From an uncultured Polaribacter sp. (GTDB taxonomy: Bacteria; Bacteroidota; Bacteroidia; Flavobacteriales; Flavobacteriaceae), in contig CAYZDK010000001.1 in assembly GCA_964477255.1 (NCBI GenBank), forward strand, positions 28,539 through 92,538: DNA of 64,000 bases, read 5' to 3'. Position numbers and translations under genes: made by a program. Each line of letters opens with the position of its first letter. Positions within the stretch are counted from its first letter, which is position 1. Shown piece by piece: positions 49,924-64,000 of the stretch. Under the pieces are notes generated by a model. The model did no database searches. It was not told the origin of the DNA and saw only the letters and a program-made list of their open reading frames with translations.

Positions 49924-52900
49924 TTATAAATTAAATCCAAAATTAAACGTAATTCTAGGGCCATCCACACTGTTGAAAACGCCAAGCCTACCAGCTACCA
50001 TATTAGCAGCACTAACTAAAATACCACCACCAACGGATGTATTTAAAGATGTTGCTCCGTTAGGAATGTTTAGTAAACTCTCTGGAGTTCCCCAAACCAT
50101 TCCATAATCAAACCCACCAAAAAGCCCTATTGTTAAAGGAACCATTTGTGTTTTAAATTGCGTGAGATTTAATCGGATATCAGAACTGTGATAGAAAGCA
50201 TTTTTACCAGTAAATCTTTCGTTTCTAAATCCTCTTAAACCTCTATTTCCTCCAATATTTGGTGCTTGAAAGAATTCGAATGCATTACTAAATAAAAAAT
50301 GTGCAGAAGCTTTTGTTGCAAAAACAAGCAGGCCATTAGACACTAATTTATGGGTAAATCCAATACTTGTTTTATTGTAGGTAAAGTCTCTTTTTTTAGT
50401 AATATTAGAAGTTACGCCAAAAGCAGTTGCAAACTCAAAACCTAGTGTTGGAAACCCTACATTGTCAATATTAGAAAAAGAATAGCTTAATTCTGAGTTA
50501 AAAAATTGCTGCGAATTAAAAAGGCGATTATTTTCATTGTATAGGGTTTCTAAAAATCTGCCAGGAGTTCTTTCCACATCAAAATTTTGATAGTTTGCTG
50601 CTAATTTAACTGATGCACCAAGTCTTCCTCTCCATTTTAAAAAGGCCCCTAAATTAATTTTTCCAATTCTTACCCTATTAAAATCTCTGTTTTCTTCATC
50701 TTTAAATGCTTCTGGATTTGCAGAATTATTTCCAAAGCCAAAAAAGTTTCTAGCAAAATTAGGACTATTTAAATCTGCTTCAATTCCTAAGTTCCAATTT
50801 CTAAGTACTTTTGCAAATTCACCATTATAGTTAAGTTCAAACCCTTCTGTTGCAAAATAATAGCTACCAGAAATATTGTGCTGGTTGGTAAAAGGATTTC
50901 GCTTAAATCCGTTGTGAGTAGATCTAAAGAGAAACCCTAATTTTACGCCATCGTCTGGATTGTACCCGATTGCAGGGTAAATGGCATTTGCTGTTTTTTT
51001 TAATTTTAAATAATTATAAGTATTGGTTTTATAATCATCCGTAAACTTTGTTCTGACTTTAGAGGTTGTAGAAAAGGTGTTTTTCTTACTTTTTTGGTCA
51101 TAAACTACAATATTTTTGCCTGTAGGAATGTCGTAATAATCATTATTTAAACCACCAATTAGAATTAGTTTTATCGATTTTTTTTCTGGTACTCCAGTAA
51201 CTTTAAAAGTATCTTTATCATCTAAACCATACAGCCAAATTTCTTTGGTTTCTTTATTAGAGTACGTTTTATCATGAATTTTTACCCCTTTTTCGCCATC
51301 TTTTATTCTATAGATTTTAATATTTGTAAATCCATTTGGCAATCTTTCTATATCAAACCAATCGTCTTTATTAGTTCCTTTTACCACCTGAAATCTAGAA
51401 AAGTACTGGTAGTATCTGTCAGAAATCTGTTGTAAATTATTTCTACGTTCTATTAATTTTTTTCGAATAGATGTTATTGTTTCGTCTTTTACTTCACTTG
51501 GAAAATTTTGAAAAGCTTTATCTATAATATTATTAGATATTGTAGTTTGTAAGAGTTGTGCCTGTTGGTTCCAGTCTTTTTTAGAAGCTTCTGCTATGAT
51601 TAACATGTCTAAAGGATAAGCAGAATAATTAAAGTGTTCTGGCTTTTTCAAATCTTCACTATAAGATCGCATACCTTGCAAAGCAGGAATAGTTTTCGTT
51701 AAATAGTTTAATAGAAATCCATCGCTGTACATAGAGAAAGCTTGGTCTCTATCTCTAGGTACAGGTTTATACACTACTTTTTTACCTTCTTTAAATTCTG
51801 CCCAACGCCACTGATCTTGATGTCTATCCCAATCTCCAATTAGCATATCAAATAATCGCGCTCTGATATAACTATTTTCATCTACAACATACTTTTCATC
51901 TTTAGCTAATTTTTTTCTAAAATCGTCTGTACTTATCAATTCGTTAGAATACCCAAAATTAGCTTTATCTCCGTGTCCAGAATCTGTTCTTTCTTCTATC
52001 ATGTATAACGCATTGCCATAATTTTCGTTGTACTGCCCAAGTGCATTTTGCTTTGGTACATAATACAATGTTGGTTTGGTATGATATATATCTGCAGCGG
52101 CTGCCAATTCTGCAATTGTGAACGGGGCATAAGGATGTGAGCCTGTAAATACATCTAGCAGTAATTTTTCTGGAAATGTTTTATCGTATTGCCCTTCTAT
52201 ATATTGGTCTTTAAAAACCACAGCTTGTAAATACTGTACTGCACTTTTTCTTAAAGCTCGCATTACATACTGTCTTCCTTGCTTGTCTTCTAACCGTAAT
52301 GATTTGGATTGATGGCCACCACCTTTTCGTATAGGTTTTAGTCCGCCAAAAAGGGTATCTAAGTTTACTGTAGGTGCGTTTACTTTGGTGCCAAAATATT
52401 TTCGATATCTTTTACCCCAGAGGAATTCAAAAAACTTTCCTTTAGACACTTCTTCTTCGGTATAAATCGAAGCTTTTTTAGAGGGTAACTCTATATTTTT
52501 AAATTGTTGAAAAGAAGGGATGCTATCTGCATCTAGAACATTTGCTTTAAAAATGGCATCTTTAGTAAAAGCATCAAAAAAGTGAACAGTAGAAGATCCG
52601 TTTTCATAAATATCTAATCGTGCATATCCATTGGTTCCGTATCCAAATACTGCGCCATCACCATTTTTTACTGCAGATTTTTTAGATCCAGAACCACTTA
52701 CAATTTGATGTAAGTTGTCTTTAATTATGTATTGTAAACTATGTTCGTGACCTGAAACAAAAATTACTTTTTCATTGCTTTGTGCAATTGTTATTAATCT
52801 TTTTTGCAACTCATTATATTTCTTATTTTGTATGTCTACATTAGCAATACCTGTAGTTTTACGTAGTAGATTTTTTAGAGTTCCAAGTACAGGAAAAGGT

Positions 52901-53622
52901 TTTAAGTGGCTTTTAAACGAATATTTACCTCCATGAGAACCATTGGTAAACATTGGGTGATGAAGGGCTACAATAGTTGTTTTACCTCTAGATTTTTTAA
53001 TATCACTTTCAAATTCTTCTAAGAATTTTTCTCTCGTTTTTATTTCACATTTATCATTTATACCTGGGTGTTTATTCCAGTTAGTAATATACCAATGTGT
53101 GTCTACAATAATTAAATTAATCTTGTCATTAATTTCTTCTTTTTTTAAAGGACAACCATTTTCTGGTAGAAAAGAATTCTTTCCTAGTTTGTCGTCTACC
53201 AGATCTTCTTGTCTTTCCAATCCTTTTAAACCACTATACCAATCATGGTTTCCAGGAATCATAATTGTTCTTCCAGGAAACTGTTCTCCTATTTCTGTTT
53301 GTACTCTAAGTTTATGCTTTGCTAATTGGTATTCTTTTTTCTTCTTTTTATTAGGAATTCCTTTTTCGTAAACGTTATCTCCTAAAAACAAAAGTGTAGC
53401 ATCCTTTGGAGCTTTTTTAATATCCTTTGCTAACCTTTGAAGTGCGATGTCTTTTTTCCCTAATTCAGAACCACCTGCATCTCCCATTAAATAAAAGGAG
53501 TGTAAGATTTTACTATTTGGTTTTTCATATTTCACAGATTCATCTACTTGCATTTTAAATGTTGCACACGAATAAAAAAGAAAAAAGCTACAAATAGAAA
53601 CTGCTAAATTGAGATGTCTCAT
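49924..53622 (-). CDS. Lipoprotein metallophosphoesterase fused to a kinase-like domain and an Omp85/BamA-type beta-barrel
   Basis: Lipobox FYSC; calcineurin-like GDAG, GDNVY, GNHDW, HHP, GHEH; central GGGHQS...DRHQDQ...RDRDQ; C-terminal barrel with GLRGF loop-6 motif; start moved to ATG 53622. Confidence 0.85.
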   Translation of the reverse strand: MRHLNLAVSICSFFLFYSCATFKMQVDESVKYEKPNSKILHSFYLMGDAGGSELGKKDIALQRLAKDIKKAPKDATLLFLGDNVYEKGIPNKKKKKEYQLAKHKLRVQTEIGEQFPGRTIMIPGNHDWYSGLKGLERQEDLVDDKLGKNSFLPENGCPLKKEEINDKINLIIVDTHWYITNWNKHPGINDKCEIKTREKFLEEFESDIKKSRGKTTIVALHHPMFTNGSHGGKYSFKSHLKPFPVLGTLKNLLRKTTGIANVDIQNKKYNELQKRLITIAQSNEKVIFVSGHEHSLQYIIKDNLHQIVSGSGSKKSAVKNGDGAVFGYGTNGYARLDIYENGSSTVHFFDAFTKDAIFKANVLDADSIPSFQQFKNIELPSKKASIYTEEEVSKGKFFEFLWGKRYRKYFGTKVNAPTVNLDTLFGGLKPIRKGGGHQSKSLRLEDKQGRQYVMRALRKSAVQYLQAVVFKDQYIEGQYDKTFPEKLLLDVFTGSHPYAPFTIAELAAAADIYHTKPTLYYVPKQNALGQYNENYGNALYMIEERTDSGHGDKANFGYSNELISTDDFRKKLAKDEKYVVDENSYIRARLFDMLIGDWDRHQDQWRWAEFKEGKKVVYKPVPRDRDQAFSMYSDGFLLNYLTKTIPALQGMRSYSEDLKKPEHFNYSAYPLDMLIIAEASKKDWNQQAQLLQTTISNNIIDKAFQNFPSEVKDETITSIRKKLIERRNNLQQISDRYYQYFSRFQVVKGTNKDDWFDIERLPNGFTNIKIYRIKDGEKGVKIHDKTYSNKETKEIWLYGLDDKDTFKVTGVPEKKSIKLILIGGLNNDYYDIPTGKNIVVYDQKSKKNTFSTTSKVRTKFTDDYKTNTYNYLKLKKTANAIYPAIGYNPDDGVKLGFLFRSTHNGFKRNPFTNQHNISGSYYFATEGFELNYNGEFAKVLRNWNLGIEADLNSPNFARNFFGFGNNSANPEAFKDEENRDFNRVRIGKINLGAFLKWRGRLGASVKLAANYQNFDVERTPGRFLETLYNENNRLFNSQQFFNSELSYSFSNIDNVGFPTLGFEFATAFGVTSNITKKRDFTYNKTSIGFTHKLVSNGLLVFATKASAHFLFSNAFEFFQAPNIGGNRGLRGFRNERFTGKNAFYHSSDIRLNLTQFKTQMVPLTIGLFGGFDYGMVWGTPESLLNIPNGATSLNTSVGGGILVSAANMVAGRLGVFNSVDGPRITFNFGFNL

Positions 53623-53623
53623 T

Positions 53624-54229
53624 TTAGTTAAGTTTGTTAAATTGAGCGATATAATTCGTATAATCTTCAAGAGTATCAATATCAATTAAATTAGCAGTAA
53701 AGGTACTTAAAATAGTGTTTTTTTGATTTTTAAGCATCATATTTTTAGCGCCTTTATCTCCATTTATATGTGCTAACTCGTTCCAATAGATTCTTGGAAA
53801 TATTGCTGGTACTCCAGGACTGTTATTGTAGGATGATGCAATAATTTTCTGACGATTTTGATTCCAAAGCGCTCTTAGTTTTTTTAGGTACTTCATTTCA
53901 ATAGCTGGTTGATCACCCAAAAGAACAAATACTGCTTTAAAAGGAGCGTTAACAGATTTAAAATATGCGATACCAGATTTAATACTTTCGCTAAGACCTT
54001 TATGATAATTGGTATTGTGAATGTAATTTATATTTGATAATCGGATACTTTTTTTTACTTCTTTGAAATTTTCGCCAAGTGTACAAAAAGTTGCTTTTGG
54101 GGCAATTTCTAGCGCTTTTTCTAAGACAACTTGAAGCATGGGTTTATCTGCTATTTTTAGCAATTGCTTATCGGTTTTCATACGCGATGATTTTCCTGCA
54201 GCAAGCACTAATATTGCAATTTCACTCAT
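53624..54229 (-). CDS. MocA-like nucleotidyltransferase (NTP_transf_3)
   Basis: LAAGKSSRM, GLSESI, LGDQP, GDKGAK, DIDT motifs. Confidence 0.88.
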   Translation of the reverse strand: MSEIAILVLAAGKSSRMKTDKQLLKIADKPMLQVVLEKALEIAPKATFCTLGENFKEVKKSIRLSNINYIHNTNYHKGLSESIKSGIAYFKSVNAPFKAVFVLLGDQPAIEMKYLKKLRALWNQNRQKIIASSYNNSPGVPAIFPRIYWNELAHINGDKGAKNMMLKNQKNTILSTFTANLIDIDTLEDYTNYIAQFNKLN

Positions 54230-55248
54230 TATTTAGAATGAATTTTTCCAGTTAATTCTCTAAGATAAAACGGTTCTTTATTCCTAAAGACAGACAGAAT
54301 TTCTGCAATTATAGAAATGGCAATTTCTTCTGGTGTACGAGCACCTATGTGTAAGCCAGCTGGAGTATAAATGCTTTCAAGAAATGCATCAGAAACATCA
54401 GGAACATAATTAAATAAGTCGTTAAAAAGCTGTTCTCTTCTCTTTGGGGCTCCTAAAATACCTATGTAGGTTGCTTTGTGCTTGCTTAATTCAATTACAT
54501 ATTTTAAATCTCGTACAAAACTGTGGTTCATGATAACAACAGCAGTATTATTCTCTATTTCATTGAATGAAAAAGTTTCAGGTTCTGCACCTTGCATGCT
54601 ATTTGCACCTGGAAAATCTGTTAGTTTTTTTTGTTCTTTTGCAGGAGTAACTACATCTACTTGCCAACCTAAATTACTTGCAATACTGCATAACTTAACA
54701 GCATCGTGTTCACCTCCAATTATTAACAAGCGGAAACATGGAGAAAGAGTTTGTTCCAATAAAAGAGAATCTTTTGATTGTTGCGTGTGGTAATTCTCAG
54801 AAAATGTAAATTTTTCTTGATTTATTATAATTTCTGACCCAAAATTACCCTTTGCTTCATCTTCTTTTTGATAGGAAGAAATTATTTTTACTGCTTTTCT
54901 ATTTCGATAGTTTTGTAAGAAAACAGCATTTAATTTATCAGAAACCAGAAAAGGTTCTATTAAAATGTATAAAATACCTTCACAACCTAGTCTGTACCTG
55001 CCATCGTAAGTAATAATTTTAGCTTTATTTTCTTTAAAAACAGATGCAGCTCTAAGAATTATTTCTTTTTCTACACAACCACCACTAACAGCACCAACAA
55101 TGCTTGAATCTTCAGCAATAAGCATGCGTACACCTGGCTTTCTATAAGAAGATCCATCTAAATGAACCACTGTAGCTAAAACATTTTTTAACCCTTTTTT
55201 TTGATTGCTAATGGCTTTCTTGAAAATTTCTTTTACTTCGTGAATCAT
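54229..55248 (-). CDS. XdhC/CoxI family molybdoenzyme maturation protein
   Basis: GSSYRKPG, GAVSGGCVE, LGCEG, YIGILG, PAGLHIGARTPEEIAISI; start moved to ATG 55248. Confidence 0.9.
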   Translation of the reverse strand: MIHEVKEIFKKAISNQKKGLKNVLATVVHLDGSSYRKPGVRMLIAEDSSIVGAVSGGCVEKEIILRAASVFKENKAKIITYDGRYRLGCEGILYILIEPFLVSDKLNAVFLQNYRNRKAVKIISSYQKEDEAKGNFGSEIIINQEKFTFSENYHTQQSKDSLLLEQTLSPCFRLLIIGGEHDAVKLCSIASNLGWQVDVVTPAKEQKKLTDFPGANSMQGAEPETFSFNEIENNTAVVIMNHSFVRDLKYVIELSKHKATYIGILGAPKRREQLFNDLFNYVPDVSDAFLESIYTPAGLHIGARTPEEIAISIIAEILSVFRNKEPFYLRELTGKIHSK

Positions 55249-55278
55249 AGAAAATCTAAAGTACACTTTTTTATGCAA

Positions 55279-56835
55279 TTAAGAACTACAAGACAACATG
55301 GAACACCCTACTTTGTCCCTTGCCCATTCAGGTCTTTTTGCATACCATTTTTCAAATATAGGTTGTTCTTGGTACGGTTTTTTTAGTAGTGTATAAAGCT
55401 CATCAATTAATTCATATTGTCCTCTATTTGCAGCATCAATAGCTAATTGTGCCATATAATTTCGTAATACATATTTCGGATTTACCGAATTCATTTTATT
55501 TTGTCTTTCTAATTGCGATAGTTTTTCTTTTTTTAACCTTTCTGCATATAATCTAAACCAATTTTCCCACTCGTCTTTATTTTTTTGACCTATATTTTCT
55601 GCATCATAAAAGGCTTTTTCAATCAATTCTAATCCATTTTTATCTTCAGAAAACTTACTTAATTCGCGAAAAAAAATGGTCATATCTATTTCTTCTAAAA
55701 GCAAGCAATCTTCTAATTTACTAATTAAGTTTTTATCTTCTTTCTGGTTTTCGTAAAATCCTAGTTTAGACTGCATCATGGTTAACGATTTTGTTTCAAA
55801 ATCAATTTTATATTGATTTAGAATTTCTTCTAATGGAGCAGCATCTTCTATAATAGGGTATAAGGCATTTGCCAATTGGTACAAATTCCAAAGTCCAATA
55901 TTTGGTTGATTTCCATACCTATAGCGTCTTTGTTGCCTATCTGTTGTGTTTGGAGTCCATCCAAAATCAAAACCTTCTAACCAGCCATAAGGGCCATAAT
56001 CTATAGTTAATCCTAAGATAGACATGTTATCGGTATTCATTACACCATGTACAAAACCAACTCTTTGCCAATGAATTATTAGGTCTAGGGTTTTGGTAGT
56101 TACTTCTTTAAAAAACTGAATGTAAGTTTTTTTAGATGGTTTACCTAAATGACTAAAATGATGTTTTATAGTATAATCTACTAATAACTTTAAATTGGCA
56201 ACATCTTTTCTAGCAGCAAAAATTTCAAAACTTCCAAAGCGTAAAAACGAAGGAGAAACTCTACAAACAATTGCACCTTTTTCGTAAGCAGGATTTCCAT
56301 CGTACATAACATCACGTAAAACCTTATCTCCAGAAAGACATAAAGACAAAGCACGAGTTGTAGGAACACCCAAATGATACATAGCCTCACTACAAAGGTA
56401 TTCTCTAATCGAAGAACGTAATACTGCTAATCCGTCTGCGGTTCTAGAATATGGAGTTTCTCCTGCACCTTTTAATTGTAATTTCCAGTTTTTTTTATTT
56501 TGCGCAACTTCAAAAAGGTTTATTGCTCTGCCATCTCCTAATTGTCCTGCCCAATTGCCAAATTGATGCCCAGCATAACACATAGCATAAGGATTGGTAT
56601 TTGGATATATTTCTTGCCCTGAAAAAATGGCTTTAAACTTTTCTGAGTTACTTTCTTCTTTAGAGATGCCTAATTCATTAAGCATTTCATCAGAGGTATG
56701 AATCAATTGTGGGTTTTTTGGAGCTTTCGGATTTACATAAGAATACATAGCACCAAAAACTTGCCTTCTACTATTCTCTAAATTTGGATCTGAAGGTAAC
56801 TCGTCAGTAAAATTATTTGTGATATTAAGCTTCAT
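55279..56835 (-). CDS. selO: Protein adenylyltransferase SelO (YdiU)
   Basis: YAGHQFG, LGDGRA, QLKGAG.TPYSR.ADG, GFVHGVMNTDN, IDYGPYG, C-terminal CSMLSCSS. Confidence 0.96.
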   Translation of the reverse strand: MKLNITNNFTDELPSDPNLENSRRQVFGAMYSYVNPKAPKNPQLIHTSDEMLNELGISKEESNSEKFKAIFSGQEIYPNTNPYAMCYAGHQFGNWAGQLGDGRAINLFEVAQNKKNWKLQLKGAGETPYSRTADGLAVLRSSIREYLCSEAMYHLGVPTTRALSLCLSGDKVLRDVMYDGNPAYEKGAIVCRVSPSFLRFGSFEIFAARKDVANLKLLVDYTIKHHFSHLGKPSKKTYIQFFKEVTTKTLDLIIHWQRVGFVHGVMNTDNMSILGLTIDYGPYGWLEGFDFGWTPNTTDRQQRRYRYGNQPNIGLWNLYQLANALYPIIEDAAPLEEILNQYKIDFETKSLTMMQSKLGFYENQKEDKNLISKLEDCLLLEEIDMTIFFRELSKFSEDKNGLELIEKAFYDAENIGQKNKDEWENWFRLYAERLKKEKLSQLERQNKMNSVNPKYVLRNYMAQLAIDAANRGQYELIDELYTLLKKPYQEQPIFEKWYAKRPEWARDKVGCSMLSCSS

Positions 56836-56836
56836 C

Positions 56837-57370
56837 TTATTTTAGTTTACTAGCATGTAGTTCTCTAAGCTTAGCCAATTTTGGCTCAATAACAAAGCTA
56901 CAGTAACTGTTTTGTGTATTTTCTTTATAAAAATTTTGGTGTTCTTTTTCTGCTTCATAAAAAATTGGAGCTTCACTAATCTCTGTTACAATAGGATTAT
57001 TGTAGTAAGGCTGTAACTTCTTAACAACTTGATGTGCAATCTCTTTTTGTTCGTTAGAATGGTAAAAAATAACAGATCTATATTGGGTTCCTCTATCTGC
57101 ACCTTGTCTATTTAAAGTAGTAGGATCATGCGTTGTCATGAAAATAATTAATATGTCTTGATAGGAAATAATATCTGCATTGTACGAGATTTGAATTACT
57201 TCTGCATGACCTGTTAACCCAGAACATATTTCTCTGTAGGTTGGTTTTCCAGGAGCATTTCCACCAGAATACCCAGAAATTACTTTTTCTACTCCTTTCA
57301 CTTCTTGAAAAACTGCTTCTGTACACCAAAAGCATCCTCCACCAACAGTAGCAATTTTAGTATTAGGCAT
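56837..57370 (-). CDS. msrA: Peptide methionine (S)-sulfoxide reductase
   Basis: GGGCFWCTE, TGHAE, DRGTQYRS, AEKEHQ, YC motifs. Confidence 0.96.
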   Translation of the reverse strand: MPNTKIATVGGGCFWCTEAVFQEVKGVEKVISGYSGGNAPGKPTYREICSGLTGHAEVIQISYNADIISYQDILIIFMTTHDPTTLNRQGADRGTQYRSVIFYHSNEQKEIAHQVVKKLQPYYNNPIVTEISEAPIFYEAEKEHQNFYKENTQNSYCSFVIEPKLAKLRELHASKLK

Positions 57371-57821
57371 TTTCAGACGATTTTTCTAGTTGAAGCGAAG
57401 CTGAGTTGATGCAATAACGTAATCCACTTGGTTCTGGTCCATCAGGAAAAATATGTCCTAAATGAGCATCACAAGTATTGCAGAGTACTTCTACTCTGAC
57501 CATTCCAAAAGTGGTATCTTTTATATATTTAATTGCGTTTTCTTTAATAGGCTGTGTAAAACTTGGCCATCCAGATTTCGAATCGTATTTAATAGTAGAG
57601 TCAAATAGAGGGGTGTTGCAGCACTTGCAGTTGTATCTGCCTTTTTCATAAGTGCTACATAATTCACCTGTATGAGGTCTTTCTGTACCTTTTAAACGGG
57701 TTACTCTAAACTCTTCTTCTGTTAATTGTTTCTTCCATTCTGCATCTGTTTTTTCTACCCTTTTATCTGGAGCAGGATTTCCGTTAACGCTAAAATTTAT
57801 AATATCTTTCCAAGTAAGCAT
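57363..57821 (-). CDS. msrB: Peptide methionine (R)-sulfoxide reductase
   Basis: GTERP, CKCC and CNTC zinc pairs, GWPSF, HLGHIF, RYCINS. Confidence 0.96.
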   Translation of the reverse strand: MLTWKDIINFSVNGNPAPDKRVEKTDAEWKKQLTEEEFRVTRLKGTERPHTGELCSTYEKGRYNCKCCNTPLFDSTIKYDSKSGWPSFTQPIKENAIKYIKDTTFGMVRVEVLCNTCDAHLGHIFPDGPEPSGLRYCINSASLQLEKSSENA

Positions 57822-58004
57822 CTGTTTTTTTATTTAAATTGATTATAATTTTATAGGTATTTAAAGTAGATAACATTCTTGTAGCCTTACAATTATTTAG
57901 TACTTTGTAACCTATTTAATTTACAGTTAAATTTACAACGAAATATAAGACCAAGAATAAGGGTTGTATAGTTTCTAACTATCATTTTATAAAACAAGTT
58001 GAAT

Positions 58005-59207
58005 ATGTCAGAATTGGTTTCTTTAGTAGAAAAGCATGTTACTCATTTGCTAAACACACAATTAGATTCTAATTATTTGTACCATAATTTGGTGCATACA
58101 CAACGTGTAGTTAAAAAAGCAGAAGAGTTATTGGATAAAGCAGCACTATCAGATAAAGATAAAGAAGCTGTTTTAATTGCTGCATGGTTTCATGACACTG
58201 GTTTTGTTGTAACCCCTAATAATCATGAAGAGCAAAGTGTTCTTAAAGCAAAGTCGTTTTTAGAATCACAACAAGTTAGTGAAGCGCTTATTACTAAGGT
58301 TTCTGATTTAATTTTAGCAACTCAGCTAAGCCATCAACCAAAAAACGAGGCAGAAAAAGTGATAATTGATGCTGATTGTGCCCATTTGGCCTCTAAAAGT
58401 TTTTTTGATACCAACAGACTTTTACGAAAAGAATGGGAATTGTTAGGACTAAAAACCTACACTGATAAAGAATGGATATTAGAGAATATCAATTTTTTTA
58501 CAGAAGGGCATAAATACCATACTGAATACGCTCTAAAAGATTGGATAAAATCTAAGGAGAAAAACTTAGCTAAATTGATGAAAAGCTTGAAGAAGCATAA
58601 GGAGAATCAGAAAAAATTTAAGCAAAAACAAGAGTCTTTAAAGATTAAAAAAGAGAAAAAAGAACTTCCTGAACGTGGTGTAGAAACGATGTTTCGTGTT
58701 GCTTTAAAAAATCATATGGAGTTAAGTAATATAGCAGACACTAAAGCTAACATTTTGCTTTCTGTAAATGCTATTATTATTTCATTGGCGCTCTCTAATT
58801 TATTACCAAAGTTAGATAATCCATCTAATGCTCATTTAATAATACCAACTGTGATTTTTGTGATTTTTACAGTAGCTTCTATAATACTTTCCATCTTGGC
58901 AACGCGCCCTAATGTAACAGAGGGTACATTTACCAAAGAAGATGTAGCTAATAAAAAAGTAAATTTACTGTTCTTCGGAAACTTTCATCAAATGAAACTA
59001 GATGAATTTGAGTGGGGCATTTCTGAGGTAATGAAAGACAAAGATTACTTGTATAGTACATTAACCAAAGATTTGTATTTCTTGGGATTGGTTTTAGACA
59101 AAAAATATAAGATATTAAGAGTAACCTACACTGTTTTTATGTTTGGCATAATAATAAGTGTAATTGCTTTTGCATTATCTTTTAGAGTATATGGTGGTGT
59201 TTCTTAA
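58005..59207 (+). CDS. HD-domain phosphohydrolase fused to a Pycsar-type transmembrane effector (DUF5706-like)
   Basis: YHNLVH, AAWFHDTG, HEEQS, DADCAH; Lys-rich linker; IADTKANILL, LLFFGNF, YLGL-like FLGLVLDKKY and three hydrophobic helices. Confidence 0.85.
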   Translation: MSELVSLVEKHVTHLLNTQLDSNYLYHNLVHTQRVVKKAEELLDKAALSDKDKEAVLIAAWFHDTGFVVTPNNHEEQSVLKAKSFLESQQVSEALITKVSDLILATQLSHQPKNEAEKVIIDADCAHLASKSFFDTNRLLRKEWELLGLKTYTDKEWILENINFFTEGHKYHTEYALKDWIKSKEKNLAKLMKSLKKHKENQKKFKQKQESLKIKKEKKELPERGVETMFRVALKNHMELSNIADTKANILLSVNAIIISLALSNLLPKLDNPSNAHLIIPTVIFVIFTVASIILSILATRPNVTEGTFTKEDVANKKVNLLFFGNFHQMKLDEFEWGISEVMKDKDYLYSTLTKDLYFLGLVLDKKYKILRVTYTVFMFGIIISVIAFALSFRVYGGVS

Positions 59208-59210
59208 AAG

Positions 59211-61598
59211 TTACACTTCTAACTCTTTAAGTAAATCTTTGTAGGTTATTGCTTTGTTTTCTTCTGTAAACTCTTGGTATTTTACCTCAACCCTTAATGC
59301 TTTTAAACCTGAAATACCTTGTAAATCTTCTATTTCTAAAAACTCTAATTTACCTAGTTTGTTTTTAGATTGTAAGAATTTAATGTACTTCACATATTCT
59401 TCTGCATCTGCTTCTTGCGAATATACAATTGCAATTTTACCTGGTGTTGTAAGTCTTTCAGTTGTTCCTTTTATGTTAGCCTTGTCTATTCTTTTCTTTA
59501 TTATTTCGTATCTAATATTGTAAGCACCATCAACATCAAACTGTTTTTCATCCATCCTAAATTTAATAGACATTGCATTACCATGAACAAGAATTAGAGA
59601 TGCAACTTCTAGCTTAAAAGGCATATTTTTTTGTTCGTGATACACAATATTTTCTAGTTCGCAAGTAGTTTTAAGTTGCCAAATTCGTAAATTATGAAAG
59701 TATAAAGGATTAAATTTTTTTGTTTTTGTAATAGATTGCCCTATATACATGTTGTACTCAATTCCATCTGTTTTGTAACGCTCAAAATAGTGCGGAAACA
59801 TAGCTTGGGCTTCTTTTTGTCTGCTATCTATATGTTGGGCTAACTTATCATTAATGTGATTTACACTTTGTTCATAATCTTTTCGTTTTTCATATACCAC
59901 ATCTAATTCTTTATCTAATCTTTTGGTGTAAATACCAACTTTTTCAAATAGCTCTTTGTTAATCTCTTTTATATGACGAAATACAGGATATATTTCCCTT
60001 TTCAGGAAATCTATAATGGTGATTTCATCTCCTGCGTTTAATCCTTTTTTTACATTATTTAAAAAGCCAGTAACTCTAAACATCAATTCGTTATAAATAG
60101 GAAGAGGTTCGTTTGTACAGGCACTTTCTAGAACAGAGATGGCTAATGTTAGTTGCGTAATTAGGTCTTCTTTAATGGCGTTATTTCTTGCTTCAGAAGA
60201 CCCTTTTATATCTGTTTGCCCAAACAAAGGAAATACATCTTTAAAAACAATTTCGTCTAATTTAGCATTACTATTAGAAGCTTTATTAAAATAATATTTT
60301 TCTGCAGCCTCATAAAATCGCCATTTTACTGAGTTATGAATAGAGGTGTAATTTTCTTGTATGGTTGCTTCTAAGTTATTTTGTCTTTCTTCAAAGACCC
60401 TGTTAACTGCAGCTTCAAAAACAGGAATTATATCCTTTAATTTGTTAATGTTAACAGAGTTTAAATCGTAAGCATTTGGTGAAGATATTTCTAATAAAGC
60501 CAAATCTTCAGAGGAGTTAGCTTGAATAGGAATAAGAACAATACTTTTTAAGTTTTGTTTTTTTAAATTTTTATACAATTGATTTTCGTTAGAAAACTCT
60601 CCATATTTATCAATATCAGAAATAACAAAGGTTTCTTTATTTTCAAAAACTTTTGTCATTATATCTTCGCAGAAAAAGTCTTTATCACACTTTACTTCAT
60701 GGTTATGGTTTAAAATTATACTATCTACACTTTTAATTATTGTTTCATAAGCACTACTATGTGCATTATGTAACAAAGAGTAGCCTAGTTTTAGGTCTTT
60801 TATGCCATAAAAATCTTTTAAATTACTTTCTAAACTTTCTATTAAATTGTCTTCTTCTGCAAGTAAGTTTGCTTTTATGGAAGAAATCATTTCTTCTGCA
60901 GTAACATCGAATAAGTTTATGATACCAAATCCTTTAAATATGTAACTATTTGGCGGAAATTTTTCTCTCCATAAATCTATATTATCATAATTATTTAATA
61001 GCTCTTTAAAGTCCTCTTGGTTAAGTTTTGGAGCTTTATCTGTTCTAGATATTTCTGTAAAATCTGCATTAAAAGCAGCTCTATAATATTTCATTGTTCC
61101 AGTAGTTTTATCTGGAATATTAAAATAAAATGGACGTTTAACATCTGCTTTAATACCATAACAAAAACCTAAGATATAGGTGCATGCCATGATATACATG
61201 CTGTCTTCTTCAAAGTTTCTTACCTTTAACTCAAAGTCTGATCCTGCGTTATTTAAAATATTTTGAAATCTATCTGTAAGTTTAAAAGAAGTAAATGTGA
61301 AAGGAATACTGGCTGCTTTAATTTCATTTAAAAGTAAAGCTTCTGGGAAAAGAGGGTCTAATAATAAATTTATTTCTTCGCTGTATTTTTCTATTAAACT
61401 TAAGTCTGTAAAACCAGAGATTAACTCAGGAGTTTTACTTAAGTGTGCTACAATATTTTTAGCAGATGCATGAAATGGATGCGTTTCATAGCTGTCTTTG
61501 GCATATTTTTCAAACATATCATATACCTTTCTAAAAGATATATTTAGTTGTAATGGTAGATCTAATTCTTCATTAAAATCTTTTCCTATAATCTTCAT
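59211..61598 (-). CDS. GAF-domain protein with a putative divergent class III nucleotide cyclase domain
   Basis: GAF-like segment (VISDID...KSIVLIPI...LLEISS); C-terminal FGQTDIKGSS, RYKTDGI, FDVDG, KKRIDK, PGKIAI, LQGISG motifs in cyclase order. Confidence 0.7.
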   Translation of the reverse strand: MKIIGKDFNEELDLPLQLNISFRKVYDMFEKYAKDSYETHPFHASAKNIVAHLSKTPELISGFTDLSLIEKYSEEINLLLDPLFPEALLLNEIKAASIPFTFTSFKLTDRFQNILNNAGSDFELKVRNFEEDSMYIMACTYILGFCYGIKADVKRPFYFNIPDKTTGTMKYYRAAFNADFTEISRTDKAPKLNQEDFKELLNNYDNIDLWREKFPPNSYIFKGFGIINLFDVTAEEMISSIKANLLAEEDNLIESLESNLKDFYGIKDLKLGYSLLHNAHSSAYETIIKSVDSIILNHNHEVKCDKDFFCEDIMTKVFENKETFVISDIDKYGEFSNENQLYKNLKKQNLKSIVLIPIQANSSEDLALLEISSPNAYDLNSVNINKLKDIIPVFEAAVNRVFEERQNNLEATIQENYTSIHNSVKWRFYEAAEKYYFNKASNSNAKLDEIVFKDVFPLFGQTDIKGSSEARNNAIKEDLITQLTLAISVLESACTNEPLPIYNELMFRVTGFLNNVKKGLNAGDEITIIDFLKREIYPVFRHIKEINKELFEKVGIYTKRLDKELDVVYEKRKDYEQSVNHINDKLAQHIDSRQKEAQAMFPHYFERYKTDGIEYNMYIGQSITKTKKFNPLYFHNLRIWQLKTTCELENIVYHEQKNMPFKLEVASLILVHGNAMSIKFRMDEKQFDVDGAYNIRYEIIKKRIDKANIKGTTERLTTPGKIAIVYSQEADAEEYVKYIKFLQSKNKLGKLEFLEIEDLQGISGLKALRVEVKYQEFTEENKAITYKDLLKELEV

Positions 61599-61724: not shown

Positions 61725-61774
61725 AAAAAAAAGTTGTATTGTGAAATTATGAATTTTACAATACAACTTTTTTT
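61725..61774 (-). terminator. Long AT-rich hairpin terminator of the GT2-GH26 unit
   Basis: AAAAAAAGTTGTATTGTGAAATT / AATTTTACAATACAACTTTTTTT, 23-bp stem with one mismatch, 18 nt after the GH26 stop. Confidence 0.75.
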
Positions 61775-61792: not shown

Positions 61793-62989
61793 TTAAGGCT
61801 TAACAATACTGTCTTTAGGCTGTTTTAAGTAATCTGGCCATAATTCTATTTGCCTTTTTATTTCAGAAGTAACTTCTGTATCGTCTTTTATGTACCAATC
61901 TACATTTTTATAGGTTATGGTACCATCACTAGAATAGTGGAAAAACACTATGGCATTTACATAAGGATACTTTTCATTAAAATTATTTAAAGCATCTCCA
62001 AACCATTTGGCTCTATCACCACCTGGTTTTAGAGAACCAAATTCTGCAATCATAATTGGTTTTTCAAATCCAGATAGTGTTGTATAATATTTACCAAAGA
62101 TTTCTTCAAAAGACCACCAATCGCTCCAACTTGTACTTGTTCCATAATTTAAAACTCCAGTTGCTAGTATATCAACATAATCTGGGCCAGGATAATATTC
62201 ATAAAATTTTTCATAGGATAAATGTGGGCTCCAAACCCAAATTATATTTAATGCACCTGCTTCATCAAAAACATCTTTAACATGTTTAAAAGCAGCAACA
62301 AATTCTTCTGGATCGTTATTTTGAGGGCCCCAAGGGTACCTATAAGGATCATTCATTTCGTGCCCAACTCTTAAATAAATTGGGTAGTTAACTTTTGCAG
62401 CCTCTGTTGCCCATTCCTTTAAATAAGCATCGTAATCTCCGTTTGCTACTGATGCTAAACCATGATTATCTCTTTGTTCTAAGGGTTTAATATTTGGGAA
62501 GTTTTCTTGTGTGAATTTACCTAACCAAGGTTCCCAAGTAATCATGGGAACAGAACCAATTCTAACAATTGCATCTACTTCATCTCTTGGGAATTCGAAT
62601 TCTTTGCCTTCACCCCAAGCTTTATAAATATGAATAATAGGAAAAGTTATGTTTAAAGAATCTTCTAAGTTTATGATTTTTTCATACGAAGTTCCATTAT
62701 CTTCATCTGCAGCACCAAAAAGAATATATTTTGATTTTAGAAGTGCAAATTTATTATCTCTTTGGTCGTCAAACCATTTTAGCTTTTTTTCTCTATTTTG
62801 TTCTCTATTACCAAGAATGTTTTCATGTTCAATGTCTTTAACTAAGTTACCCAAACTCTCTAGTATACCTCCTAGAGGTCCTTTAGAACTTTTACTAACA
62901 GCAGATAAGCCATAAATAATAAAGTAGCCAATAGCCAATGCTAGTAACACATTAAAAAGTCTTTTATACTTGTTTTTAGATGATGACAT
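61793..62989 (-). CDS. Membrane-anchored glycoside hydrolase family 26
   Basis: N-terminal TM; PMITWEPW, RVGHEMND (acid/base), WVWSP, YYPGPDYVD, IMIAEFG (nucleophile). Confidence 0.88.
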   Translation of the reverse strand: MSSSKNKYKRLFNVLLALAIGYFIIYGLSAVSKSSKGPLGGILESLGNLVKDIEHENILGNREQNREKKLKWFDDQRDNKFALLKSKYILFGAADEDNGTSYEKIINLEDSLNITFPIIHIYKAWGEGKEFEFPRDEVDAIVRIGSVPMITWEPWLGKFTQENFPNIKPLEQRDNHGLASVANGDYDAYLKEWATEAAKVNYPIYLRVGHEMNDPYRYPWGPQNNDPEEFVAAFKHVKDVFDEAGALNIIWVWSPHLSYEKFYEYYPGPDYVDILATGVLNYGTSTSWSDWWSFEEIFGKYYTTLSGFEKPIMIAEFGSLKPGGDRAKWFGDALNNFNEKYPYVNAIVFFHYSSDGTITYKNVDWYIKDDTEVTSEIKRQIELWPDYLKQPKDSIVKP

Positions 62990-63030
62990 AGTCTAAGGTT
63001 TTTACAATATTAGTTGTTTTTTGTGTTCTT

Positions 63031-64000
63031 TTATTCTTTAATCTTAAATTTTTTATTTGCAGATATAATTATTCTATCCCAAGCATTTTCTGTTTTAATG
63101 AAAAGCGATTGATAGGCAGCAGCAATTCCGCCAACAAACTGTAAAAAAGCTATTAAAGCAAACCCAAACATTGCCCAAGTTCTTTCTGCAGTTAGTATTA
63201 ATTCTGATTCAGAAACATAATATCTTCTTTCAATATAAACTCCTGTTATCATTAGAATAAAAATTAAACAATAGATTAAAAGAGGTTTAACAAAAGGGCT
63301 CATAAATTTCTTATCGGCAACTTTTGCAGTAGGAATGTATGGTACTTTCTTATTAATAATGGCCAAATAGAATGCATAGGTATATATTGGCCAACAAGAA
63401 TACTTTAAAACCATTCCTCTCCAATGTATGCCTTTTTCTGTTTTTCTATCACAGAAAAAGTTTTGAGCGTAGGCATATATTAGAATAGCAATTACAAGTA
63501 TTGGTGTTCCTACAGCTATAAACTCTCCAAAATCCATACTTGCAGGAATAATTTTTGTAGCAAAAAATAGCAGAGGTATAAAAACAAAAAACGCTGTCAT
63601 TGGGCCAACCAAGTAGTAAGTACCTATAGAGATGTAAGAAACTTTTTGCCAAAAAGTAAGGCCTTTTGATGCTTTTGGGAATTCATCAAATAACATTTCA
63701 TAAACTCCTCTTGCCCATTTTAGTTGTTGTTTACAGTACGAAGAAAAATCTTCAGGCACCAATCCTCTACTCACAATTACCGGGTTGTAAATAGATTTCC
63801 AGCCTTTTGAGTGAATACGAATGGATGTATTTAAATCTTCTGATAAACCAGTTGCATGTCCTCCTATACTTTCTAGCGCTTTTCTTCTAAAGGTACAATT
63901 TGCACCTATAGCAACAGCACCTCCATAACCATATAAACCCATTTGCGTTGGGCCATAAAAGGTATAAGTTTGTTCTGCTGCACCTTGTGCTGTTAAAGAC
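63031..64000 (-). CDS. Processive GT2 glycan synthase (BcsA/CesA-like), 5' part outside the window
   Basis: GANCTFRR, GLSEDL (catalytic ED), GLVPED, QQLKWARG (QxxRW variant), C-terminal TMs; frame stays open upstream of 63942 to the window edge (SLTAQGAAEQTYTFYGPTQ). Confidence 0.88.
   Translation of the reverse strand, partial: SLTAQGAAEQTYTFYGPTQMGLYGYGGAVAIGANCTFRRKALESIGGHATGLSEDLNTSIRIHSKGWKSIYNPVIVSRGLVPEDFSSYCKQQLKWARGVYEMLFDEFPKASKGLTFWQKVSYISIGTYYLVGPMTAFFVFIPLLFFATKIIPASMDFGEFIAVGTPILVIAILIYAYAQNFFCDRKTEKGIHWRGMVLKYSCWPIYTYAFYLAIINKKVPYIPTAKVADKKFMSPFVKPLLIYCLIFILMITGVYIERRYYVSESELILTAERTWAMFGFALIAFLQFVGGIAAAYQSLFIKTENAWDRIIISANKKFKIKE

Follow-up and report, generated by a model that had tools for sequence, protein, structure and literature searches.

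Do PycTM-family membrane proteins, the effectors of Pycsar antiphage systems, also serve in signalling circuits that belong to the ordinary chromosome? The question is raised by two adjacent genes in a 64,000-nucleotide (nt) stretch of DNA, hereafter the window, from an uncultured Polaribacter sp. of the Flavobacteriaceae (GenBank assembly GCA_964477255.1, contig CAYZDK010000001.1, positions 28,539 to 92,538 of the forward strand). One gene, on the (+) strand at 58005–59207, encodes a 400 amino acid (aa) protein that joins an HD domain to a PycTM membrane domain (HD-PycTM). The other, on the (−) strand at 59211–61598, encodes a 795-aa protein with a GAF domain and a predicted class III cyclase fold at its C-terminus (the GAF protein, or GAF-cyclase). 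An earlier reading of the window's letters alone, the original prediction, took the pair for a cyclic-nucleotide system, either a domesticated second-messenger pathway or a thresholded abortive-infection system. Here we argue that the two genes belong, on balance probably, to a chromosomal, core-like signalling module of Bacteroidota, of cyclic-nucleotide type, and not to a mobile defence system.

The HD-PycTM and GAF genes are gained and lost together in Flavobacteriaceae

Co-occurrence and synteny had been named in the original prediction as one check on a link between the two genes, and we examined both in one genome per genus from 151 Flavobacteriaceae genera. Full-length HD-PycTM and the GAF protein were present in the same 111 genera, both were missing from the other 40, most of which have small genomes, and no genus had just one of the two. 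The GAF gene was single-copy in all 111 genera, and a second copy of HD-PycTM was found in a few. The genes were adjacent in 98 of the 111, with a gap of 3–165 nt (median 34 nt). Ninety-three of these adjacent pairs are convergent, and the remaining five, which make up a divergent five-genus clade, are co-directional with the HD gene followed by the GAF gene. In eight further genera the pair is convergent with inserts of 0.4–3.7 kb between the genes. We are highly confident that the HD-PycTM and GAF genes are functionally linked.

Both open reading frames (ORFs) of the window lie where the original prediction had placed them, and the arrangement that it described, convergent genes whose stops are 3 nt apart with no hairpin between them, was likewise recovered. 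The HD-PycTM gene ends in a TAA stop at 59205–59207 and the reverse-strand stop codon of the GAF gene occupies 59211–59213, leaving a 3-nt spacer (59208–59210) without a terminator; a terminator scan and an inverted-repeat search between the two stops found no G+C-rich hairpin and only 9-nt AT-rich imperfect repeats. The 400-aa HD-PycTM product in public databases starts at ATG 58005 and not at TTG 57999.

Within the window's own genus, a complete 2.6-Mb genome (G204) carries no GAF-cyclase and no PF00211 cyclase, and the HD-PycTM query found there only a divergent match with 36% identity over query aa 8–321. The module can therefore be lost within this genus.

The GAF protein ends in a predicted cyclase domain that sequence models miss

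The 795-aa protein had zero matches in the Pfam, NCBIfam and PADLOC libraries, and phmmer against the sequences of the Protein Data Bank (PDB) returned only noise. Its precomputed Pfam label is PF27174, a family that is absent from the Pfam copy used for our scans and for which we found no citing paper. Members of the protein's family are uniform in length (~790 aa) and are named ‘GAF domain-containing protein’ by NCBI; at least 3976 database proteins match, and a search of 50%-identity cluster representatives gave 710 with E <1e-30.

We modelled the full-length protein, which we take to be cytosolic, with AlphaFold2 from an alignment of 75 diverse members, which gave a predicted local distance difference test score (pLDDT) of 91.6 and a predicted template modelling score (pTM) of 0.75. 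The best fold matches of this model were soluble guanylate cyclase, a phytochrome-cyclase fusion (6fht) and PAS-GAF phytochrome modules. It begins with a predicted PAS/GAF-like alpha/beta domain (aa 16–231; 60906–61553, on the (−) strand like all features of this gene), which was matched by PAS-GAF phytochrome bidomains. There follow a GAF domain (aa 233–400; 60399–60902), two long linker helices that by their predicted secondary structure may be signalling helices (aa 391–441; 60276–60428), and a putative, divergent class III cyclase homology domain (aa 445–795; 59214–60266). The GAF assignment draws on several comparisons: Pfam GAF and GAF_2 match homologues of the 795-aa protein, a profile of the 75 members weakly detected solved GAF chains in the PDB (E 2e-4, aa 240–405), and GAF matches in Foldseek reached target-normalised template modelling scores (TM-scores) of 0.6–0.69.

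The C-terminal 351 aa were also folded separately (pLDDT 95.0, pTM 0.88). When this model was compared with the PDB by Foldseek, ranks 1–49 were all class III adenylyl, guanylyl or uridylyl cyclases, headed by the guanylyl cyclase Cya2 (2w01; E 7e-5, probability 1.00, target-normalised TM-score 0.63) and including the Pycsar-type uridylate cyclase 8jsz at rank 47. No GGDEF protein was found among the top 50 matches. The expectation of a GAF sensor joined to a class III cyclase-like C-terminus was thus borne out, and we consider it very probable that the C-terminus adopts a cyclase fold, an assignment made solely by structure prediction and Foldseek. Between β1 and the β2–β3 hairpin the model places a helical insertion of ~135 aa (aa 467–600; 59799–60200), and it is because of this insertion that the Pfam model PF00211 misses the protein and that profile-profile alignments are not significant. 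We ran such alignments with hhalign, setting the whole domain, its two halves and an insertion-spliced version against six canonical cyclase domains and the membrane-anchored CHD379 family. The resulting alignments, though not significant, paired motif blocks at canonical positions, (S/T)DI(K/R)xSS with tDfxxfT and YKTDGVEY with IKTIGDAY.

D463 and D611 had been singled out in advance as key residues, and the homologues agree. D463 (codon 60210–60212), at the end of β1 in the motif (S/T)DI(K/R)xSS, and D611 (codon 59766–59768), in the motif YKTDG, are invariant in the 75 diverse homologues (31–61% identity), as is G612, and N694 is nearly so. On the model these residues fall on the expected structural elements, namely β1 (D463), the β2–β3 turn (D611 and G612) and helix α4 (N694), and N694 stands within a conserved FDVDGAYN that resembles YDxWGxxVN. 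The basic residues R471, K701, K702, R703, K706, R715 and R769 are also invariant or nearly so in this alignment. Catalytic competence of the cyclase-fold domain is plausible.

HD-PycTM combines an HD hydrolase with a Pycsar-type membrane domain

The predicted union of an HD domain and a DUF5706-like membrane domain in one protein was confirmed by Pfam scan, in which PF01966 matched aa 32–127 (E 2.8e-6) and PF18967, formerly DUF5706, matched aa 273–383 over the full model (E 4e-38). PADLOC PycTM models (7e-18) and CBASS two-transmembrane (2TM) effector models match aa 234–393, and this is the extent that we assign to the three-transmembrane (3TM) PycTM domain (58698–59177, (+) strand). The residues of the HD metal site, H29, H33, H65-D66, H76, D124 and D126 in the numbering of a 402-aa product, are encoded within 58083–58376 on the (+) strand, and their codon coordinates were checked. 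In an alignment of 24 diverse homologues, down to 29% identity, they are kept as YHN..H, HD, HE and DAD, together with the PycTM blocks RGIETMFR, ADxKANI, TRPNVT, NLLFFGNF and RKYxLLR. By these comparisons the protein consists of an HD phosphohydrolase, predicted to be cytosolic and with its metal site intact, which a Lys-rich coiled linker joins to a predicted three-helix PycTM membrane domain. NCBI names its homologues ‘Pycsar system effector family protein’.

The original prediction had also called the HD domain ‘PDE-type’, that is, of phosphodiesterase (PDE) type, and here the sequence did not follow it. The Pfam scan gave no match to the class I phosphodiesterase family (PF00233), and a profile of the HD family reached PDE chains among the PDB sequences only at E ~0.5. 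The nearest solved relatives were the uncharacterised HD hydrolases 2pq7 (1e-6), Escherichia coli YedJ (6e-6) and BH2835, and the HD domain of a type III-D Cas10 (1e-5). The label rests on a short YHNxxH resemblance, and it is therefore not supported.

A metallophosphoesterase-Omp85 gene is a conserved third component

A gene for a metallophosphoesterase joined to an Omp85 barrel, at 49924–53622 on the (−) strand, had been put forward as a possible third member. Its likely start is ATG 53622 (MRHLNL...), and the mechanical ORF reaches TTG 53685. The product begins with a lipoprotein-type signal (lipobox FLFYSC) and matches Pfam Metallophos (1.3e-10) and ShlB (5.9e-5) and NCBIfam Omp85_fam; the metallophosphoesterase motifs GDAG, GDNxY, GNHD, HHP and GHEH are invariant. 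We considered whether this could be a class III phosphodiesterase of cyclic nucleoside monophosphates (cNMPs), of the CpdA/Rv0805 type, and rejected that assignment, as the profile of the metallophosphoesterase domain instead matches purple acid phosphatases (6e-11). These sequence features suggest an acid phosphatase of type Vd-like design that is displayed on the surface or secreted.

The gene was found in 113 of the 151 genera and, of the 111 genera that carry the pair, 103 have it linked to the HD gene, which supports its place as a third component. The original prediction had expected the Omp85 and HD genes to be divergent but for the intervening block; in 67 of the 111 genera they do face directly away from each other, across a gap of 40–276 nt, and in 31 more they are divergent with an insert of 0.3–7.5 kb. 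The window is one of the latter, with a 4.4-kb block of MobA-like, XdhC, SelO and MsrAB genes. In the five co-directional genera the three genes form an operon in the order HD, GAF, Omp85.

Variation in copy number was also seen. Some genera carry two or three tandem Omp85 paralogues beside HD-PycTM (for example G075:C5:105009-116118, G016:C21:86489-97531 and G101:C1:2651604-2662686), and a second pair of HD-PycTM and Omp85 genes, with no second GAF gene, was found on G117:C2, G098:C5 and G019:C1.

The module is rearranged in other Bacteroidota lineages

To see how the pair fares beyond one family we turned to 301 genomes from across the Bacteroidota. The GAF-cyclase was encoded by 47 of these, all of which also encode PycTM, and by none of the genomes without PycTM; PycTM itself was found in 116, either joined to HD or alone in a protein of ~200 aa. 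A class III-type cyclase, whether of the PF00211 or the GAF type, was present in 114 of the 116 PycTM-bearing genomes versus 89 of the 185 others (Fisher odds ratio 61, P 1e-23, uncorrected for phylogeny). In 18 of the PycTM-bearing genomes the GAF-cyclase is the sole class III-type cyclase.

We then examined the neighbours within 7 kb of HD-PycTM at 26 loci outside Flavobacteriaceae. An Omp85-type barrel, with or without a metallophosphatase, was found at 15 loci, an SdiA-regulated/phytase-like propeller at 12, a SixA-like histidine phosphatase at 10, the polyphosphate kinase PPK1 at eight, a cyclase of either kind at eight, and a PAP2 phosphatase at five. In these other families the enzyme and the Omp85 barrel are encoded as separate genes. 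Four of the eight locus cyclases are GAF-cyclases, and in two cases (L004 and L005) these lie in a co-directional operon, with the order HD-PycTM, PPK1, propeller, metallophosphatase-Omp85, GAF-cyclase at L005. The other four are membrane-anchored, canonical PF00211 cyclases of ~370 aa, intact-looking and found in families that lack the GAF protein; at L034 such a cyclase and HD-PycTM converge with 6 nt between them. That the place of the cryptic cyclase can be taken by a PF00211 cyclase is the strongest indirect argument for a cyclase role of the GAF protein.

In a metagenomic flavobacterial lineage the GAF-cyclase and the HD domain are fused. In one 968-aa protein (P0147) the GAF-cyclase is followed at the C-terminus by an HD domain, which shares 40% identity with the HD domain of the window (E 4e-43). 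This GAF-cyclase-HD fusion occurs on five contigs, and the three that we examined come from three samples. At L058:6001-14907 the fusion gene forms an operon with a solo PycTM gene, a metallophosphatase-ShlB gene, a gene for a 291-aa protein and PPK1, with gaps of 1–4 nt. Upstream of this operon, 4.6 kb away, is a fused msrB-msrA gene, and msrA and msrB flank the module in the window too. A 1383-aa frame around the GAF gene of G185 was considered as a further fusion and rejected, the region having many long overlapping ORFs on both strands, as is seen in high-GC DNA.

Relatives of the module genes were also seen elsewhere. In the Bacteroidota family f27, almost all sampled genomes encode a solo PycTM protein (~190–200 aa) that is 42–47% identical to the window's PycTM domain, and they have several PF00211 cyclases as well. 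At L036 (G305:C1:762800-775400) a thioredoxin-like gene is found 0.4 kb from the solo PycTM gene, and we saw no gene of the module close by. The window's own genome (G000) encodes a second, canonical class III cyclase at C32:1574-2674 (L012), a 366-aa protein with N-terminal membrane helices (PF00211, E 2e-14). It shares 30% identity with the CHD379 cyclase, the neighbour of HD-PycTM in other Bacteroidota families, and in G000 it is encoded away from the module. A SixA-like histidine phosphatase gene followed by a Ppx/GppA-type gene is found at C24:861-2252 of the same genome, and tblastn at E 1e-5 found no homologue of PPK1, PAP2 or the SdiA-regulated-like protein in this assembly, which is 94.5% complete.

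A cyclic-nucleotide-type signalling module is the favoured reading

How might the parts work together? In the mechanism that we propose, binding of a ligand to the GAF module would switch on a dimeric cyclase, which would make a 3',5'-cyclic nucleotide, its base being left unspecified. The PycTM domain would sense this messenger, by analogy with Pycsar and Pucsar, since in both the same module is a cNMP-associated membrane effector. Binding may then alter the conductance of the membrane or the activity of the attached HD domain, and the HD domain would most likely hydrolyse the messenger and limit the signal, as EAL and HD-GYP proteins do beside GGDEF. The physiological output is probably phosphate scavenging or polyphosphate storage at the envelope, as suggested by the gene neighbourhood, that is, by the third gene and by the PAP2, phytase-like propeller, SixA-like and PPK1 neighbours. 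We put forward tentatively, and would not expect every part of it to hold, the full scheme: a housekeeping circuit of Bacteroidota that controls surface phosphate scavenging and polyphosphate storage, with HD-PycTM as a hexamer gated by a GAF-cyclase that senses a metabolite.

That the cryptic domain acts as a cyclase is argued indirectly by the PF00211 cyclases found in its slot, by the GAF-cyclase-HD fusion and by the genome count, in which the GAF-cyclase fills the gap left in genomes with no other class III-type cyclase. Several observations weigh against the favoured reading. PF00211 and all other sequence models, in library scans and in PF00211 scans of the genome, fail to recognise the cyclase, and hhalign of the C-terminal domain against canonical cyclases gave P values of 0.017–0.18. 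The second Asp is part of a ‘DG’ motif and precedes the canonical ‘GD’ position by two residues; the canonical transition-state Arg, at Asn+4, is a Glu here, and a near-invariant Arg (R696) stands at Asn+2. With its Asp shifted and a Glu at Asn+4, the domain could therefore be inactive or of different chemistry. For the HD domain, comparison of its profile with PDB sequences gave no significant similarity to known cNMP phosphodiesterases. As to linkage, just eight of the 26 HD-PycTM loci outside Flavobacteriaceae have a cyclase inside 7 kb, second HD-PycTM copies with an Omp85 gene come without a second GAF gene, and the counts from the phylum survey ignore phylogeny.

In a rival explanation the locus would be a cluster for phosphate and polyphosphate metabolism that uses no cyclic-nucleotide signal, with the cyclase-fold domain a pseudo-enzyme or a nucleotide- or polyphosphate-binding regulator and HD-PycTM a membrane-anchored phosphohydrolase or channel working with the proteins of the phosphatase cluster. 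Phosphoesterase and polyphosphate genes recur beside HD-PycTM in several families among the 26 loci, the metallophosphatase domain resembles purple acid phosphatases, HD-PycTM is commoner than either cyclase neighbour, and the cyclase motifs are non-canonical, with DG for GD and no Arg at Asn+4. We nevertheless hold this explanation to be unlikely, if deserving of attention, because the residues that occupy the canonical metal and ribose positions show no variation among the 75 homologues (31–61% identity), an intact-looking PF00211 cyclase takes the slot of the GAF protein, class III-type cyclases are found in 98% of the genomes with PycTM, and in Pycsar and Pucsar it is the PycTM family that provides cNMP cyclases with their effectors. 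Mere inheritance of an old gene order, with no functional link between the neighbours, is highly improbable: most of the evidence does come from a single family, whose gene order tends to be conserved, but the linkage outlasts the inversion from convergent to co-directional genes, insertions, operon formation elsewhere and domain fusion, and gain and loss of the two genes are strictly joint (111 genera with both, 40 with neither and none with one).

The other possibility is a Pycsar-like abortive-infection system of the core genome, such that phage would activate the GAF-cyclase, a cNMP would open a PycTM pore and kill the cell, and the HD domain would set the threshold. Membership of the PycTM family, the matches to PADLOC PycTM and CBASS 2TM effector models, the cyclase-fold partner and the NCBI name of the homologues all point this way. 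Against them stand the presence of the pair in 111 of 151 genera with fixed synteny and a single-copy GAF gene (a second HD-PycTM copy being confined to a few), flanking genes of housekeeping type with uniform GC and no defence genes nearby, the failure of PADLOC cyclase models to find the GAF protein, GAF input domains of metabolite-sensor type, and the conserved partnership with an outer-membrane phosphatase and polyphosphate genes. An abortive-infection role thus appears improbable for a locus that is single-copy, keeps its synteny among housekeeping genes and is recurrently linked to polyphosphate and phosphatase genes. Of the two options that the original prediction had left side by side, the domesticated second-messenger pathway is accordingly the better fit, and the thresholded abortive-infection system fits poorly.

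Comparison with known systems

Pycsar was reportedly described by Tal et al. in 2021. cNMP cyclases are recurrently paired with a 3TM effector family, in Pycsar with cCMP and cUMP and in Pucsar with cGMP as the signal, and EcPucTM forms a hexameric cylinder (bioRxiv 10.64898/2026.08.12.744502). The signalling module of the window shares with both systems the genetic tie between a class III-fold cyclase and a PycTM-family membrane protein (PF18967, ‘pJV1-spdB3 3TM’). It differs in that its cyclase is a 795-aa protein with PAS/GAF-like and GAF inputs and a 135-aa insertion, missed by PF00211 and PADLOC, that its effector bears an N-terminal HD hydrolase, that its genes are mostly convergent, with housekeeping neighbours and a fixed synteny kept in much of the family, and that its cluster includes a conserved outer-membrane phosphatase gene and links to polyphosphate genes. 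Set against the features of Pycsar, whose effectors are of the PycTM family or of CNBD-TIR type, a PycTM-family effector is present (PF18967, 4e-38; PADLOC PycTM, 7e-18), no PycC-type cyclase was recognised (no PF00211, PADLOC, Pfam or NCBIfam match to the 795-aa protein), and we saw no patchy, mobile or defence-island distribution (111 of 151 genera, fixed synteny, housekeeping neighbours). In the Pycsar and Pucsar literature we found no mention of an HD fusion, of a GAF-cyclase partner or of a core Bacteroidota locus, and literature searches on DUF5706, on PycTM with HD and on the Pfam accessions found no paper describing the present module.

Class III cyclases regulated by GAF or PAS domains include CyaB1 and CyaB2 of cyanobacteria. 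In its predicted structure the GAF protein resembles these cyclases, 6fht and soluble guanylate cyclase, being composed of a sensor, a coiled signalling helix and a cyclase homology domain; unlike them, it has shifted motifs ((S/T)DIxxSS, KTDG for KTIGD, and Arg at Asn+2 rather than Asn+4), a large helical insertion between β1 and β2, and no homology detectable at the sequence level. A further parallel is offered by the writer–eraser pairs of c-di-GMP signalling, which consist of GGDEF with EAL or HD-GYP domains. There too a palm-fold cyclase is coupled to a phosphohydrolase, and in one lineage of the present module the two are fused (GAF-cyclase-HD); here, however, the predicted cyclase fold is class III and not GGDEF, and the HD domain is of YedJ/2pq7 type and not HD-GYP. 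The third gene recalls type Vd autotransporters and two-partner secretion, in which a PlpD-like passenger, a POTRA domain and an Omp85/ShlB barrel are found. It likewise fuses an N-terminal enzyme domain to a C-terminal Omp85/ShlB-type barrel, but its passenger, for which secretion is predicted, is a purple-acid-phosphatase-like metallophosphoesterase in place of a patatin lipase.

The module resembles a Pycsar-type pair of writer and receiver, but it lacks a recognisable PycC-type cyclase and the distribution of a defence island. Its predicted parts are a class III cyclase that is regulated by sensor domains and cryptic in sequence, a PycTM receiver that bears an HD domain, and a phosphatase of the outer membrane. 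Genes labelled ‘Pycsar system effector family protein’ and ‘GAF domain-containing protein’ are carried by many genomes of flavobacteria and other Bacteroidota, including those of several Polaribacter species in NCBI records. Our results suggest that these two genes are the receiver and the writer of a nucleotide signal, and that annotation of such loci as defence systems is misleading. Counts of cyclases in Bacteroidota would also be too low, because this class III branch is invisible to Pfam and provides the sole class III-type cyclase in 18 of the 301 genomes. The ties of PycTM-type membrane modules to phosphate and polyphosphate genes offer a testable physiological role beyond immunity, and the module is a tractable case for exchange between immune effectors and core signalling parts. 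If the housekeeping circuit is real, the 3TM ‘suicide’ effectors of Pycsar and Pucsar would have branched off into immunity from an ancient cNMP receptor or channel with a physiological role, or the branching would have gone the other way, and the cyclase would define a new, sequence-cryptic branch of class III.

Surroundings of the module in the window

GC content is uniform (0.28–0.35) over the final 14 kb of the window, and the window ORFs and library scans showed flanking genes of housekeeping type with no defence genes nearby. Between the Omp85 and HD genes, on the (−) strand at 53624–57821, lies a housekeeping block of MobA-like, XdhC-like, SelO (protein adenylyltransferase), MsrA and MsrB genes, named from ORF translations alone, which we do not count as members of the module; other genera have different inserts at this position or none. 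The region 5' of the HD-PycTM gene (57822–58004) contains a TTTGTAA-type promoter-like element. A regulator site shared by the divergent Omp85/HD promoters was sought by comparison with 20 other genomes and rejected as a candidate: only a weak TTTGTAATTTG-type element was found, in about half of the genomes, and it looks like an ordinary Bacteroidota promoter element.

On the other side there is a strong hairpin with a T-run and an AT-rich 20-bp stem (61729–61771, (+) strand), which probably terminates a GH26-like gene. As the hairpin separates that gene from the GAF-gene promoter region, the GAF gene probably has a promoter of its own. The GH26-like gene itself (61793–62989; PF02156, E 8.6e-10) adjoins a gene for a cellulose-synthase-like family 2 glycosyltransferase, which runs past the end of the window (region 61793–63999).

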